DNA of 64,000 nucleotides from Escherichia coli (GTDB lineage: Bacteria; Pseudomonadota; Gammaproteobacteria; Enterobacterales; Enterobacteriaceae): NCBI RefSeq assembly GCF_036507355.1, contig NZ_AP027877.1. One strand, 5' to 3'. This document shows, in pieces, positions 3,724 through 57,148 of this stretch (the first letter of the stretch is position 1; every line of letters begins with the position of its first letter). A program made the translations under genes and the position numbers. Below the pieces are notes generated by a model. It was given only the letters and a program-made list of their open reading frames with translations. It made no database searches and was not told the origin of the DNA.

Positions 3724-4683
3724 TTAGCGCGCGTTACGCAGCTTTTGCAAACAACGCTTCAAACCTTCATCCATCGGCGCTTCGATACGCATCACCTCAC
3801 CGGTCCCCGGATGGGTAAACTTCAACGCTGCGGCGTGCAGGAACAGACGATTTAATCCCGTGCCTGCTTCAGTGAGCTGTCTGTCAAATTCACGGTCACC
3901 GTAGCGATCGTCAAAGGCAATCGGATGACCCGCATACTGTGTATGCACACGGATCTGATGAGTACGCCCTGTTACCGGGCTACAACGCACCAGGGTGGCA
4001 AATACATAGCGTTCTTCCACTTTAAAGCGTGTTTCCGACGGTTTGCCTTCCTGACTTACACGCACGATACGTTCGCCGCTTTGCAGAATATTTTTCAGTA
4101 ACGGCGCTTGAACGCTCTTCACATGCGACTGCCACTGACCACGCACCAGCGCCAGGTAATCTTTTTGCATCCCTTTTTCACGTAATTGCTCATGCAGAGA
4201 ACGCAACGCCGAGCGTTTTTTCGCTACCAGCAACACACCTGAAGTGTCCCGGTCGAGACGATGAACCAGTTCAAGGAACCGCGCTTCCGGGCGCAACGCC
4301 CGCAAACCTTCAATAACGCCGAAGCTTAAACCACTGCCGCCATGTACCGCCGTACCGGAAGGTTTATTCAGCACCAGGATATGATCATCTTCATATAAGA
4401 TGACGTCCGCCAGCGCCGCCACCTTTTGCAGATGTGGCGAAACCGCCTCTTCTTCCCGCTCAGCAACGCGAACCGGTGGGATACGCACCTCATCACCCGC
4501 TTCGAGTTTATATTCAGGCTTAATACGTTTTTTGTTCACCCGCACTTCGCCTTTACGCAAAATACGGTAAATCATACTTTTTGGTACGCCTTTCAATTGG
4601 GTACGCAAAAAGTTATCGATACGTTGCCCCGCTTCGTCAGCGGTGATAGCAACAATTTTTACGGATGGAGTCTCTGTTTTCAT
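3724..4683 (-). CDS. rluC: 23S rRNA pseudouridine synthase RluC
   Basis: ORF track 319 aa, MKTETPSVKIVAITADEAGQRIDNFLR; RluA-family core. Confidence 0.95.
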   Translation of the reverse strand: MKTETPSVKIVAITADEAGQRIDNFLRTQLKGVPKSMIYRILRKGEVRVNKKRIKPEYKLEAGDEVRIPPVRVAEREEEAVSPHLQKVAALADVILYEDDHILVLNKPSGTAVHGGSGLSFGVIEGLRALRPEARFLELVHRLDRDTSGVLLVAKKRSALRSLHEQLREKGMQKDYLALVRGQWQSHVKSVQAPLLKNILQSGERIVRVSQEGKPSETRFKVEERYVFATLVRCSPVTGRTHQIRVHTQYAGHPIAFDDRYGDREFDRQLTEAGTGLNRLFLHAAALKFTHPGTGEVMRIEAPMDEGLKRCLQKLRNAR

Positions 4684-5255
4684 GGTTGGCGATTCTAATT
4701 AGCCAACAGGATTCGCGCCACTCATTTTTCTATGCTTATATTTACTTTTGCACCTTATTACTTCACTGCGTGATCACTTTATTGATGGTTATTAAACCAA
4801 TCACCAGCAAGAAGTGAAAAAACTGTGAGTAAGCGGGTGATAAATGGTAAAAGTCATCTTGCTATAACAAGGCTTGCAGTGGAATAATGAGGCCGTTTCC
4901 GTGTCCATCCTTGTTAAAACAAGAAATTTTACGGAATAACCCATTTTGCCCGACCGATCATCCACGCAGCAATGGCGTAAGACGTATTGATCTTTCAGGC
5001 AGTTAGCGGGCTGCGGGTTGCAGTCCTTACCGGTAGATGGAAATATTTCTGGAGAGTAATACCCAGTCTGTTTCTTTGATAATTGCGCTGTTTTTCCGCA
5101 TGAAAAACGGGCAACCGACACTCTGCGCCTCTTTGAGCTGACGATAACCGTGAGGTTGGCGACGCGACTAGACACGAGGCCATCGGTTCACACCCGGAAA
5201 GGCGTTACTTTGCCCGCAGCTTAGTCGTCAATGTAAGAATAATGAGTAAGTTACG
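4684..5255 (+). promoter_or_regulatory. rne promoter region and long 5' leader
   Basis: 570-bp non-coding gap upstream of rne; established knowledge that the rne leader is long, structured and autoregulated; promoter positions not determined here. Confidence 0.55.
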
Positions 5256-8200
5256 ATGAAAAGAATGTTAATCAACGCAACTCAGCAGGAAGAGTTGCGC
5301 GTTGCCCTTGTAGATGGGCAGCGTCTGTATGACCTGGATATCGAAAGTCCAGGGCACGAGCAGAAAAAGGCAAACATCTACAAAGGTAAAATCACCCGCA
5401 TTGAACCGAGTCTGGAAGCTGCTTTTGTTGATTACGGCGCTGAACGTCACGGTTTCCTCCCACTAAAAGAAATTGCCCGCGAATATTTCCCTGCTAACTA
5501 CAGTGCTCATGGTCGTCCCAACATTAAAGATGTGTTGCGTGAAGGTCAGGAAGTCATTGTTCAGATCGATAAAGAAGAGCGCGGCAACAAAGGCGCGGCA
5601 TTAACCACCTTTATCAGTCTGGCGGGTAGCTATCTGGTTCTGATGCCGAACAACCCGCGCGCGGGTGGCATTTCTCGCCGTATCGAAGGCGACGACCGTA
5701 CCGAATTAAAAGAAGCACTGGCAAGCCTTGAACTGCCGGAAGGCATGGGGCTTATCGTGCGCACCGCTGGCGTCGGCAAATCTGCTGAGGCGCTGCAATG
5801 GGATTTAAGCTTCCGTCTGAAACACTGGGAAGCCATCAAAAAAGCCGCTGAAAGCCGTCCGGCTCCGTTCCTGATTCATCAGGAGAGCAACGTAATCGTT
5901 CGCGCATTCCGCGATTACTTACGCCAGGACATCGGCGAAATCCTTATCGATAACCCGAAAGTGCTCGAGCTGGCACGTCAGCATATCGCTGCATTAGGTC
6001 GCCCGGATTTCAGCAGCAAAATCAAACTGTACACCGGCGAGATCCCGCTGTTCAGCCACTACCAGATCGAGTCACAGATCGAGTCCGCCTTCCAGCGTGA
6101 AGTTCGTCTGCCGTCTGGTGGTTCCATTGTTATCGACAGCACCGAAGCGTTAACGGCCATCGACATCAACTCCGCACGCGCGACCCGCGGCGGCGATATC
6201 GAAGAAACCGCGTTTAACACTAACCTCGAAGCTGCCGATGAGATTGCTCGTCAGCTGCGCCTGCGTGACCTCGGCGGCCTGATTGTTATCGACTTCATCG
6301 ACATGACGCCAGTACGCCACCAGCGTGCGGTAGAAAACCGTCTGCGTGAAGCGGTGCGTCAGGACCGTGCGCGTATTCAAATCAGCCATATTTCTCGCTT
6401 TGGCCTGCTGGAAATGTCCCGTCAGCGCCTGAGCCCATCACTGGGTGAATCCAGCCATCACGTCTGCCCGCGCTGCTCCGGTACCGGTACCGTGCGTGAC
6501 AACGAATCGCTGTCGCTCTCTATTCTGCGTCTGATCGAAGAAGAAGCGCTGAAAGAGAACACCCAGGAAGTTCACGCCATTGTTCCTGTGCCAATCGCTT
6601 CTTATCTGCTGAATGAAAAACGTTCTGCAGTGAATGCGATTGAAACTCGTCAGGACGGCGTGCGCTGTGTGATTGTGCCAAACGATCAGATGGAAACCCC
6701 GCACTACCATGTGCTGCGCGTGCGCAAAGGGGAAGAAACCCCAACCTTAAGCTACATGCTGCCGAAGCTGCATGAAGAAGCGATGGCGCTGCCGTCTGAA
6801 GAAGAGTTCGCTGAACGTAAGCGTCCGGAACAACCTGCGCTGGCTACCTTTGCCATGCCGGATGTGCCGCCAGCACCAACCCCAGCTGAACCTGCCGCGC
6901 CTGTCGTAGCCCCAGCACCTAAAGCTGCACCGGCAACACCAGCAGCTCCTGCACAACCTGGGCTGTTAAGCCGCTTCTTCGGTGCACTGAAAGCGCTGTT
7001 CAGCGGTGGTGAAGAAACCAAACCGACCGAGCAACCAGCACCGAAAGCAGAAGCGAAACCGGAACGTCAACAGGATCGTCGTAAGCCTCGTCAGAACAAC
7101 CGCCGTGACCGTAATGAGCGCCGCGATACCCGTAGTGAACGTACAGAAGGCAGCGATAATCGCGAAGAAAACCGTCGTAATCGTCGCCAGGCACAGCAGC
7201 AGACTGCCGAGACGCGTGAGAGTCGTCAGCAGGCTGAGGTAACGGAAAAAGCGCGTACCACCGACGAGCAGCAAGCGCCGCGTCGTGAACGTAGCCGCCG
7301 CCGTAATGATGATAAACGTCAGGCGCAACAAGAAGCGAAGGCGCTGAATGTTGAAGAGCAATCTGTTCAGGAAACCGAACAGGAAGAACGTGTACGTCCG
7401 GTTCAGCCGCGTCGTAAACAGCGTCAGCTCAATCAGAAAGTGCGTTACGAGCAAAGCGTAGCCGAAGAAGCGGTAGTCGCACCGGTGGTTGAAGAAACTG
7501 TCGCTGCCGAACCAATTGTTCAGGAAGCGCCAGCTCCACGCACAGAACTGGTGAAAGTCCCGCTGCCAGTCGTAGCGCAAACTGCACCAGAACAGCAAGA
7601 AGAGAACAATGCTGATAACCGTGACAACGGTGGCATGCCGCGTCGTTCTCGCCGCTCGCCTCGTCACCTGCGCGTAAGTGGTCAGCGTCGTCGTCGCTAT
7701 CGTGACGAGCGTTATCCAACCCAGTCGCCAATGCCGTTGACCGTGGCGTGCGCGTCTCCGGAACTGGCCTCTGGCAAAGTCTGGATCCGCTATCCAATTG
7801 TACGTCCGCAAGATGTACAGGTTGAAGAGCAGCGCGAACAGGAAGAAGTACATGTGCAGCCGATGGTGACTGAGGTCCCTGTCGCCGCCGCTATCGAACC
7901 GGTTGTTAGCGCGCCAGTTGTTGAAGAAGTGGCCGGTGTCGTAGAAGCCCCCGTTCAGGTTGCCGAACCGCAACCGGAAGTGGTTGAAACGACGCATCCT
8001 GAAGTGATTGCTGCCGCGGTAACTGAACAGCCGCAGGTGATTACCGAGTCTGATGTTGCCGTAGCCCAGGAAGTTGCAGAACAAGCAGAACCGGTGGTTG
8101 AACCGCAGGAAGAGACGGCAGATATTGAAGAAGTTGTCGAAACTGCTGAGGTTGTAGTTGCTGAACCTGAAGTTGTTGCTCAACCTGCCGCGCCAGTCGT

Positions 8201-52251: not shown

Positions 52252-53238
52252 TCACTTATTAAAATGCCCCCAACGGAAATACATGTCACATGCCATCATA
52301 AAATCGTTATGCCAGAGGAATCGACAATAGAAAAAATAGTAAATTAAGCACGGTACATAGCAGAGTAAAAAATAGGCTTCAAACCAAATCCGCCATTCCA
52401 CAAGCGTTGCCAATACCGACACCAGCGTAATCCACATCACTTCAATAACCAGCAATATGAATAACCGAAGCCAAAGCGGCTTGGCAAAAAAGGTCGACAA
52501 CACATTTTCACTGGAGAAAAAGAGATCGATTTCCTGCAAAAAAAGCCTGCCCAAAAAAGCGTACCGCCTGGAGAAGCGCAGAAAAAACAGATTAATCGCC
52601 AACACTACGCCACAAAGAATGAGCAATGCAATTATCGATTTAAACGTTAACCACTGCCCCTCTATCACAAAAGAATCACTGTTACGCAACGGGCTGATAG
52701 TAAGCAGGTTAACAACCGTTGAGATGCACACCGAAAGCAGCACATAGCGAGTCAGACTTCTATATTTTACTTTTTTCGCTACTGAAATAGCGACCTGCTT
52801 GACATAACTGGTGCGGATCATCCGAAACAGCAGAAAGATAACCAACGGCCCAAGTAACGAAATCAGGAACAGCGTATATAACGAGGGTAGAAGCTGGTAT
52901 AGCCCCCAACTCATTGCACTCAACATGATTAACGACAGAAATCCTGCCACCAGAGGTTGTGTAAGAAATAATTCTATTTTGTGGTTCTGCTTTTTCTTAA
53001 ACCACGAAAAATCGATATTCTTCGTGACGCATTTATAAGCCCAGTACGCCTTGAGATCAAAAATAAAATTATACAGCACCAGGGCCAGAATCCCACTAAC
53101 GACACCAATATCCTCTGATGGAAAAGTAAATCCTGCATTTTTCCAATAAAAGCCTATCAGAATAAGTCCAATAGCATAAATGTATATCAGACTTCGTTTA
53201 TCCTGAAAGCGAATAAAAGTTAAATAATCAGGAATCAT
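52252..53238 (-). CDS. ycdU: Polytopic inner membrane protein YcdU
   Basis: ORF track 328 aa; very hydrophobic and A+T-rich; start overlaps the stop of the upstream acyltransferase gene by 4 nt. Confidence 0.85.
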
Positions 53239-54189: not shown

Positions 54190-55578
54190 TTATAGATAGT
54201 ATTTAAAGCCCAAATAAAGGCCTAACGTGTCGCCAAAAAGCGCAAATTCAGAATACCGACTTCCCAGCGCGCTATAGCCACCGGCATAGGCTTCAAGCTG
54301 GTTACTGATAGCACTGAGCGGCGTGGAATAATGCAGGCCCAGCAACGTGCTGCCATCAATGAGATTGACCACCAGCGAAGGCTGCAGCGTCGACTCTCCC
54401 GACAGCGGCAGACTGACCCAGGCGTTCAGATAGTGCTTACCCTGCAGCATCCCCTGATTGGCGGTATTGCTGATTTCTGAAGCCATCAGGTATTTGTAAG
54501 AATCAAATGCCTGATCCAGTGGCGCATAGCCGGTTGTGGTATTGAGGAAGTCAATTAACTCGCGCTGCTGACGCTGTTCAGCGCGCGAATAACCCTCGCT
54601 CTGAAAGTAATACTCAACGCCAAACACGCTGAAATTATCACTGGTGTACTGCCCACCCAGCGCCAGCTCCACGCCGCTTTCATCTTTCGTTTCATAGAGC
54701 GAATCCGGAAACTGATATTCCTCGACCTGCGCCGTCTCACGGTGGGAAAGATGCCGCCATTGCTGGGAGCGGTGGTAGGCTGCGTCGACATTCAGCGTAA
54801 GCTGCGGGGTGTAGTGATAACTGTCAGACAGCGCGAGTGACGGCGATGGTCCGAGCCGCACATTGACTGTCGGCGTGTGCTCACCAAAGCGATGATCGCT
54901 GAAGCTCAGCAGATAGGCTTCGTCGCTGTTTCCCTGCTGATTAGCCGACCAGTTGCCAGACGTCACATAGCGTTTGTCGATGGTGGCTAACTTCGGTATG
55001 ACACTCGCCGAAAACGCATAATCGCGTGTATCCACGCTCATTTTTGCGCCCCACGATGACGCCTGATACGCCGATGTCATTTTGGGATCGTGCAAACGCG
55101 TCGACTGGAATCCGGTGTAATAATGCGTTTGCAAATCAGAAGGCGAACGCAAAAAGAACATTCCTGACGGCGCGGCAAATTTGCCTGCTTCAAATTGAAT
55201 GCTGTCCGAGGCACTATAGACCAGACTGAGGCGGTTAATTAACGCACGCGTGCGGCTATCATCCGTTTCGAATTTCCCTGCGGGTTTAAGCGCATATTCG
55301 TTTATTCCATACAGATTGAGCTTAAGGTCCAGCGTATTGTCGATTATCGAACAACCACTGTTGATGCCAATCCCCGCCTCCTGATAACCGTTGTGACGAG
55401 TGTAGGGATTTTTGCCTGCAATCTGCCAGGCCGAAGCCTGTTTATTGACATAAGACACCTGCTCGTAAAGCGTCACATCGCTGTTTTGTGCCACCTCGTC
55501 ACCTGACAGGCAATCCGCCTGTACCGTCAACGGCAGCGCAACACACAGCAACGAAGAGATCTTCAGCGTACGTTTCAT
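54190..55578 (-). CDS. Putative outer-membrane protein, function unknown
   Basis: ORF track 462 aa; signal peptide MKRTLKISSLLCVALPLTVQA; Tyr/Gly/Ser-rich, no long hydrophobic helices, consistent with a beta-barrel. Confidence 0.55.
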   Translation of the reverse strand: MKRTLKISSLLCVALPLTVQADCLSGDEVAQNSDVTLYEQVSYVNKQASAWQIAGKNPYTRHNGYQEAGIGINSGCSIIDNTLDLKLNLYGINEYALKPAGKFETDDSRTRALINRLSLVYSASDSIQFEAGKFAAPSGMFFLRSPSDLQTHYYTGFQSTRLHDPKMTSAYQASSWGAKMSVDTRDYAFSASVIPKLATIDKRYVTSGNWSANQQGNSDEAYLLSFSDHRFGEHTPTVNVRLGPSPSLALSDSYHYTPQLTLNVDAAYHRSQQWRHLSHRETAQVEEYQFPDSLYETKDESGVELALGGQYTSDNFSVFGVEYYFQSEGYSRAEQRQQRELIDFLNTTTGYAPLDQAFDSYKYLMASEISNTANQGMLQGKHYLNAWVSLPLSGESTLQPSLVVNLIDGSTLLGLHYSTPLSAISNQLEAYAGGYSALGSRYSEFALFGDTLGLYLGFKYYL

Positions 55579-56233
55579 TTCGCACCTCGCTGAATATACT
55601 CTTTGGTGAAATGAAACTCCTGCAGCGATTCCAGACGAACATCGCTGTACTCCATCACTGAATAGTTATTGCCGTGACGGACGTCGGTAACGGTTATTTT
55701 CATGGGTCGCGTTTTCCCCAACACCGGCTGGAAATCCTGATACAACACTTCTTTTATTAACTGGTCATCCTGCGAGTAATAGGCTGCCTTCCACGGGCGA
55801 TTATCACCGTCTTTTTCAACGTAATAGATAACCTTCGGCCAGGTGATATCCGCCGATTTACGCACCAGCGCCAGCTTGTAACACTGCTTTTCAGCACACG
55901 TGACTTCCCCCACCAGGGTCGAGTCATAGGCATATTCAAAGTTAGTGACAATGACATCGCCGTTAGAGATTTGCCCAATTAATCTTTGTTGCCGTGAAAT
56001 AGGCATAGGACGTCGCAGTTCCGGCGTGTAAAACCATAAATCGTACCAGTCGGAAAGCATGATTTTTCCTTTATCTCGCGGCGGATAAATAAAACGCACC
56101 AGCGAGCGTGCATCCGCTTTTTCATTACCCTGCGGTTTCATAAAGCGCATGGAAATATCGAGGACCTGTTTATTCTCTGGCTGGGTTGTGCCCGCTTTAT
56201 ATTCCGTTACCGTCAGCGTGTAACGAAACGGTT

Positions 56234-56242
56234 TATTCGGCG
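56234..56242. repeat. Left 9-bp target-site duplication of IS1 copy 1 (TATTCGGCG)
   Basis: Identical 9-mer directly flanks both IS1 ends. Confidence 0.9.
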
Positions 56243-56297
56243 GGTGATGCTGCCAACTTACTGATTTAGTGTATGATGGTGTTTTTGAGGTGCTCCA

Positions 56298-56573
56298 GTG
56301 GCTTCTGTTTCTATCAGCTGTCCCTCCTGTTCAGCTACTGACGGGGTGGTGCGTAACGGCAAAAGCACCGCCGGACATCAGCGCTATCTCTGCTCTCACT
56401 GTCGTAAAACATGGCAACTGCAGTTCACTTACACCGCTTCTCAACCCGGTACGCACCAGAAAATCATTGATATGGCCATGAATGGCGTTGGATGCCGGGC
56501 AACAGCCCGCATTATGGGCGTTGGCCTCAACACGATTTTACGTCACTTAAAAAACTCAGGCCGCAGTCGGTAA
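56298..56573 (+). CDS. insA: IS1 InsA
   Basis: ORF track 91 aa, zinc-finger CxxC...CxxC. Confidence 0.93.
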
Positions 56574-56995
56574 CCTCGCGCATACAGCCGGGCAGTGACG
56601 TCATCGTCTGCGCGGAAATGGACGAACAGTGGGGCTATGTCGGGGCTAAATCGCGCCAGCGCTGGCTGTTTTACGCGTATGACAGGCTCCGGAAGACGGT
56701 TGTTGCGCACGTATTCGGTGAACGCACGATGGCGACGCTGGGGCGTCTTATGAGCCTGCTGTCACCCTTTGACGTGGTGATATGGATGACGGATGGCTGG
56801 CCGCTGTATGAATCCCGCCTGAAGGGAAAGCTGCACGTAATCAGCAAGCGATATACGCAGCGAATTGAGCGGCATAACCTGAATCTGAGGCAGCACCTGG
56901 CACGGCTGGGACGGAAGTCGCTGTCGTTCTCAAAATCGGTGGAGCTGCATGACAAAGTCATCGGGCATTATCTGAACATAAAACACTATCAATAA
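56492..56995 (+). CDS. insB: IS1 InsB (transposase made as an InsAB' frameshift fusion)
   Basis: ORF track 167 aa, overlaps insA in the -1 frame. Confidence 0.93.
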
Positions 56996-57010
56996 GTTGG
57001 AGTCATTACC

Positions 57011-57019
57011 TATTCGGCG
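57011..57019. repeat. Right 9-bp target-site duplication of IS1 copy 1 (TATTCGGCG)
   Basis: Identical to 56234..56242. Confidence 0.9.
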
Positions 57020-57148
57020 AACGAATTTCGTCAGCGCGACGAATTATCTCCAGCGCCTTATCATCTGTGCTCGCCGCCTGAACGCACGACGTAGCGAGCC
57101 ACAGGCAAGCAAACCACTTGCCGTAAAAAGCCATATTCATAATTAGCC

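Follow-up and report, generated by a model that had tools for sequence, protein, structure and literature searches.

In Escherichia coli O157:H7 EDL933, the interval between dgcT (ycdT) and ycdU/serX holds O-island 47 (OI-47), a 31.7-kb island spanning z1528-z1556 (PMC8565820). EDL933 also has the phosphodiesterase PdeT/VmpA, which is absent from K-12 (PMC5635171). The K-12 arrangement reads dgcT-IS3D-ymdE'-ycdU, and all that is kept there is ymdE', a short 3' piece of a FabD-like gene, together with ycdU (PMC4951805, PMC5635171). For OI-47, a review of the O islands discusses GrvA alone.

The gene order of the intact island can be followed in strains XJ34 and Sakai. It opens with an EAL phosphodiesterase gene, fidL and grvA, an SDR oxidoreductase gene, a fimbrial operon and a two-partner-secretion pair. 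A same-strand run follows, which consists of acpS and genes for a FabG-like reductase, a FabZ-like dehydratase, an ACP, a GcvT-like aminomethyltransferase, a double-KS protein, a KS, an ATP-binding protein, a LolD-like ABC ATPase, a 218-aa protein, a MacB/LolC-like permease, a LolA-like protein, a 462-aa protein and a FabD-like transacylase, and finally ycdU. From ECs_1282 to ycdU, the genes of intact strains lie on one strand with gaps of at most 73 bp and several start/stop overlaps. From its position, the EAL phosphodiesterase of the island may be PdeT/VmpA. The LolA-like, ABC and 462-aa proteins have a presumed role in export, and family membership and neighbours suggest that the LolA-like protein may bind and shuttle a hydrophobic cargo.

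IS1 produces its transposase, InsAB', through a -1 frameshift, for which the AAAAAAC motif in the insA/insB' overlap is the site. The transposase makes staggered 9-bp cuts at the target, and their repair yields the target-site duplication. IS1 insertions are classically polar, and IS elements are known to move in stored cultures. Here, we analysed a 64,000-nucleotide stretch of an E. coli genome (contig NZ_AP027877.1 of assembly GCF_036507355.1; hereafter, the window), in which an IS1 element interrupts the LolA-like gene of an OI-47-type island.

Results

A simple IS1 insertion at the LolA-like gene

The element that separates the two LolA-like fragments (IS1 copy 1) has the features of the IS1 family throughout, namely the length, imperfect inverted repeats of ~23 bp, insA and insB' with the frameshift motif, a 9-bp duplication and identity to reference copies (Table 1). 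It starts with GGTGATGCTGCCAACTTACTGAT and ends with the reverse complement of GGTAATGACTCCAACTTATTGAT, with 18 of the 23 terminal bases pairing, and its RefSeq annotation includes the programmed frameshift. Compared with K-12 IS1A, it shares the 768-bp length, the 23-bp imperfect terminal repeats, insA, insB' and AAAAAAC, and the 9-bp target duplication, but differs by three nucleotides (765 of 768 identical); two of these substitutions are common to a second IS1 copy nearby, while one is private (T486G, synonymous). We compared the window with a set of 5,426 complete E. coli genomes from which its source genome is absent and whose closest member is 99.2% identical over 25 kb of core genome. 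Many copies annotated there as "IS1-like element IS1A family" match the element at 99.9%, and IS1 matches as such were found in 4,970 of the 5,426 genomes, at a median of 11 places per genome.

Both sides of the element carry the same nine bases, TATTCGGCG. The bases directly outside these two copies differ (CGAAACGGTT versus AGTCATTACC; GGTGATGCTG versus AACGAATTTC), so the repeat is exactly 9 bp long, and the chance of such a 9-mer match at a fixed position is ~4e-6. The preliminary description of this DNA had proposed a simple transposition of IS1 flanked by a perfect 9-bp duplication; a script check bore out its exact coordinates, and the anatomy of the element, its direct 9-bp repeat and the collinearity of its flanks together demonstrate that the event at 56243-57010 is a simple IS1 insertion.

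Table 1 Features of the island remnant and its two IS1 copies in the window.
Feature	Position	Strand	Basis or remark
ycdU, 328 aa	52252..53238	-	start overlaps FabD-like stop (ATGA, 53235-53238)
FabD-like ACP S-malonyltransferase, 314 aa	53235..54179	-	full-length form of K-12 pseudogene ymdE (PMC4951805)
462-aa protein, ECs_1296 orthologue	54190..55578	-	start overlaps LolA-like stop (ATGA, 55575-55578)
LolA-like gene, 3' fragment, codons 41-262	55575..56242	-	entire PF17131 domain; without signal peptide or native start codon
Target-site duplication, copy 1	56234..56242		TATTCGGCG; direct reading and script check
IS1 copy 1, IS1A type, 768 bp	56243..57010	+	IRL 56243-56265, IRR 56988-57010; antisense to interrupted gene
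insA, 91 aa, intact	56298..56573	+	ORF list, comparison with K-12 IS1A
insB' frame, 167-aa ORF, intact	56492..56995	+	ORF list, comparison with K-12 IS1A
AAAAAAC motif	56549..56555	+	within insA/insB' overlap, where the IS1 -1 frameshift site sits
Target-site duplication, copy 2	57011..57019		TATTCGGCG; direct reading and script check
LolA-like gene, 5' fragment	57011..57140	-	43 native residues (...VQA/AS; putative signal peptide) followed by R and two stops within the IS1 end
MacB/LolC-type ABC permease, 436 aa, intact ORF, ECs_1294 orthologue	57149..58459	-	profile match, Sakai annotation
218-aa protein, no family assignment, ECs_1293 orthologue	58460..59116	-	profile search, Sakai annotation
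LolD-like ABC ATPase, 3' remnant, last 108 of 235 codons (327 nt)	59100..59426	-	LolD profile positions 119-220; first 381 nt deleted
IS1 copy 2	59427..60194	-	flanks TTCAGTGGC / CATTTTTAA, no target duplication; same transcription direction as operon remnant
EAL phosphodiesterase, 3'-truncated, 398 of 536 residues, ECs_1272 orthologue	60195..61389	-	profile match, alignment to XJ34 and Sakai

The interrupted gene reconstructs in frame

Deleting 56243-57019 (i.e., the element and one copy of the duplication) from the window by script left a minus-strand ORF of 789 nt running from 57140 to 55575, with 262 codons, a stop and no internal stops, in which the duplicated 9 bp are CDS nucleotides 122-130. 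This confirms the uninterrupted 262-aa protein that had been predicted for the joined fragments. The reconstructed protein matches the Pfam family LolA_like PF17131 (E = 1.9e-35, model positions 2-184 of 184) and, over residues 29-259, the PDB entry 3BUU, 'LolA superfamily protein NE2245' (E = 4e-33). With NE2245 and PF17131 it thus shares homology over residues 29-259 and a full-length Pfam match; it differs from NE2245 in that its gene pairs with a MacB/LolC-type ABC system in a fatty-acid/polyketide-like cluster, and neither protein has a demonstrated cargo. RefSeq names the uninterrupted allele "outer membrane lipoprotein-sorting protein". At the N-terminus, K8 is followed by a hydrophobic stretch (residues 9-20) and by VQA/AS; this looks like a Sec signal peptide, which would make this a putative periplasmic protein.

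The gene is the orthologue of Sakai ECs_1295, which it equals in length and matches at 98.9% DNA identity. Like ECs_1295, it lies in the ECs_1292-1298 gene neighbourhood between dgcT and ycdU/serX, and the surroundings of the reconstructed gene are syntenic with both XJ34 and Sakai. The window differs in that its copy is split by IS1 and its island is without an equivalent of ECs_1273-1291. No exact match to the reconstructed 262-aa sequence was found in a collection of 15 billion proteins, owing to its private substitutions A59T and P248Q. Look-ups for contigs that encode exactly the truncated EAL protein, the 191-aa 3' fragment or the 462-aa protein also came back empty.

From established IS1 biology, we propose that an IS1A-type element transposed into codon 41-44 of this ECs_1295 orthologue, where a staggered cut at the target would have given the usual 9-bp duplication. 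The split gene would then consist of a 44-residue signal-peptide stub that stops just inside the IS1 end, and of a 3' part predicted to be promoterless, start-less and non-exportable. Because neither piece is expected to yield a working protein, the LolA-like gene is predicted to be dead (i.e., knocked out, with a presumed loss of expression), in line with the inactivation of one gene that the preliminary description had put forward.

Uninterrupted alleles and a lineage-private insertion

That description had also suggested a search of related genomes for an uninterrupted allele. The 789-nt reconstruction had matches in 389 of the 5,426 genomes; in 383 of these the match covered at least 80% of it, with identities of 97-99.2%. 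In addition, a permease identical to that of the window is encoded in 23 further contigs. The eight of these that were inspected individually all have the intact 262-aa gene alongside, with blastn continuous across the insertion site; the other 15 were grouped as having largely the same gene neighbourhood. In all intact references aligned by blastn, the two flanks from the window overlap by exactly the 9 duplicated bases.

Among the 5,426 genomes, the IS1 insertion is private to the lineage of the window: a 1,651-nt query made up of the element with its two flanks found IS1 at the same site in none of them (at least 80% coverage). Against 10 reference sequences, the window has eight nonsynonymous and six synonymous private substitutions over ~6.4 kb, and the remnant ORFs contain no stops and no frameshifts. 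So few changes since the insertion, in a single lineage, fit a fairly recent event, as had been proposed, although they imply no date.

Since the insertion was seen in no other genome examined, and since IS elements can move during storage, we considered whether it arose in laboratory storage or passage of the isolate, or as an assembly artefact. Misassembly would not yield a perfect 9-bp direct repeat together with an in-frame reconstruction. Moreover, IS1 copy 1 carries one change that is absent both from its neighbour and from the best-matching IS1 copies of the genome collection (all at 99.9%), which suggests some age or a different donor. We therefore regard a storage or assembly origin as very improbable, and favour transposition in the natural history of the lineage.

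We also rejected recombination linked to IS1 at the insertion. SNP density relative to the closest contigs changes within window 57233-57908, from ~1 SNP per 1.5 kb on the upstream side to ~1 per 100 bp on the downstream side; this shift lies upstream of the insertion and off the IS1 site. It points to a boundary of allelic recombination in the 3' portion of the permease gene.

The window carries a remnant of an OI-47-type island

The DNA to either side of the island aligns collinearly to K-12, XJ34 and Sakai, which places the island between dgcT and ycdU/serX. Within it, three collinear blocks follow Sakai ECs_1272 and ECs_1292-1298 in gene order at 97.2-99.2% DNA identity. The full gene set of OI-47 (27 ORFs in EDL933) is not present, with 25,388 bp missing relative to Sakai. 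On this comparison, the segment at 52.2-61.4 kb is a remnant of an OI-47-type island and not a complete island. Window positions 27100-52000 align with E. coli genomes as a single collinear piece without any IS; on this ground, and because exactly matching proteins carry E. coli labels, a Shigella origin, which the IS1 copies and the 99.2% ceiling had brought to mind, was rejected. Neither the 462-aa nor the 218-aa protein matched a Pfam or NCBIfam family; in one database source, a member of the cluster of the 462-aa protein bears the label DUF3570. At the other edge of the remnant, between ycdU and tRNA-Ser (serX), an 80-bp unit at window 52041-52120 matches three places in K-12 (near 1,097,142, near 1,097,323 and at the collinear position), and K-12 is ~460 bp longer between ycdU and serX; this region looks like a case of copy-number variation of a ~180-bp repeat.

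The missing DNA coincides with the second IS1. IS1 copy 2 lies ~2.4 kb upstream of the insertion and fuses the EAL gene, which lacks its 3' end, to the ABC-ATPase gene at codon 128, a junction found in none of the 5,426 other complete E. coli genomes. At this point 25,388 bp are missing relative to O157:H7 Sakai (1,338,620-1,364,007) and 26,156 bp relative to XJ34. Relative to Sakai, the deletion removed the equivalent of ECs_1273-1291 and parts of ECs_1272 and ECs_1292, and with them regulators, the fimbrial and two-partner-secretion genes, all of the fatty-acid/polyketide-like biosynthetic genes and half of the ABC-ATPase gene. The one intergenic region of appreciable size ahead of the transport genes was lost with it. 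From the usual layout of ABC ATPases, the ATPase remnant is expected to have lost its Walker A motif. The EAL protein encoded beside dgcT lacks its final 138 residues, and dgcT and pgaA appear intact (window 60195-62968); loss of this phosphodiesterase might shift the c-di-GMP balance in the pga/csg neighbourhood. IS1 copy 2 could have reached its present state by an adjacent deletion or by recombination between two IS1 copies.

These two are the only IS1 copies in the window. They are inverted relative to each other, lie 2,416 bp apart and differ at one nucleotide (IS1 position 486, window 56728; ACG versus ACT in the synonymous Thr79 of insB'). Because IS1 copy 1 equals IS1 copy 2 plus one substitution, it could be a local hop from copy 2. 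The same arrangement could be read as a composite transposon, or as an inversion produced by intramolecular replicative transposition, in which the two IS1 copies and the 2,416 bp between them belong together; their inversion, proximity and near identity speak for such an origin. The intervening segment, however, is ordered and oriented as in XJ34, Sakai and eight other contigs. Its junction with the downstream flank falls exactly on the 9-bp duplication, a direct and not an inverted repeat. IS1 copy 2 is without a duplication and borders, on its outer side, the native neighbour towards dgcT. Because 57011-59426 keeps its native order and orientation, we rejected a composite-transposon or inversion origin, the chance of which we consider negligible, and retain two separate events, a simple insertion at copy 1 and a deletion junction at copy 2.

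Polarity is largely moot in a truncated operon

According to the preliminary description, the insertion is probably polar on the downstream outer-membrane, acyltransferase and ycdU genes. On that account, IS1 copy 1 would be the primary lesion of an otherwise functional operon and would act mainly by polarity on the 462-aa, FabD-like and ycdU genes. These genes are indeed tightly spaced and overlapping (Table 1), which fits co-transcription, the polar effect of IS1 insertions is well established, and the account would once have been true if the insertion came before the deletion. Against it, the operon is cut 2.4 kb upstream by IS1 copy 2, and the ~25.4 kb missing there held all biosynthetic genes, the first 127 codons of the ATPase and the sole large upstream intergenic region. 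We therefore found no support for this account as stated, and consider a primary polar lesion unlikely.

Given the one-strand run with gaps of at most 73 bp in intact strains, the 25.4-kb deletion would have removed the upstream promoter region along with all biosynthetic genes. What survives without a pathway, a complete ATPase or that promoter region is the permease, 218-aa, LolA-like, 462-aa, FabD-like and ycdU genes. In principle, a polar effect on the genes downstream is plausible; given the upstream deletion, it would be largely moot. With neither a substrate pathway nor an ATPase left to the transport genes, the insertion would have had little or no further functional consequence. A consensus scan for promoters and terminators found no outward-facing promoters and only an inward-facing promoter-like site in each IS1; its counts were no higher than in shuffled sequence, and it is weak evidence. 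Internal promoters, or read-through from IS1 copy 2 (which has the same orientation as the remnant), could still transcribe the remnant, and the insertion could be the older of the two events, in which case it may for a short time have been polar on a live operon.

IS elements bound independent truncations of the island

The island is broken at IS elements in other strains as well. In K-12, IS3D lies exactly at both homology break points (window 61476 and 53578; the IS at 4246-5503 of the extracted K-12 locus). The K-12 junction thus resembles that of the window in having an IS element at a deletion junction of the same island, but the element is of the IS3 family in K-12 and IS1 in the window, the end points are different and K-12 lost more. 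In Combat11I9 and L26, IS1B joins the LolA-like gene to grvA (5776-7571 of the extracted Combat11I9 locus). A contig of SRR14994016 has an IS1 end 72 nt from the ATPase junction of the window (IS1 at 1-30 of extracted locus L011). XJ34 carries IS1 in its haemagglutinin gene (6555-7323 of the extracted locus), and O157:H16 Santai has IS1 inside the FabD-like/ycdU stretch. Furthermore, a ycdU/FabD-like query had matches in 2,667 of the 5,426 genomes, whereas the full FabD-like gene was present in only 389, with at least three distinct truncation end points among the matches listed (query positions 1512, 1327 and 1159).

Judged from these junctions, the island is eroded independently by IS elements in K-12 and in other strains. 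Such repeated IS-bounded truncations could also reflect selection to lose the island (e.g., its EAL phosphodiesterase and GrvA beside dgcT-pga), or a hot spot for IS1 targeting, rather than neutral decay, but we consider this quite unlikely.

Discussion

Together, these data support an IS1 insertion that killed the LolA-like gene of an island in decay through IS elements, an explanation to which we assign a probability of about 0.93. The insertion is textbook IS1 biology in a degraded copy of a known accessory island, and represents no new kind of feature; beyond annotation, it is of little importance. For annotation, the two LolA-like fragments are best treated as one pseudogene disrupted by IS1, and the segment at 52.2-61.4 kb as a degraded OI-47-type island with a truncated EAL gene, a truncated ABC-ATPase gene and orphan transport genes. 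The insertion is usable as a lineage marker, and the dgcT-ycdU island of the window adds one more case to a recurrent site of IS-mediated erosion in E. coli.
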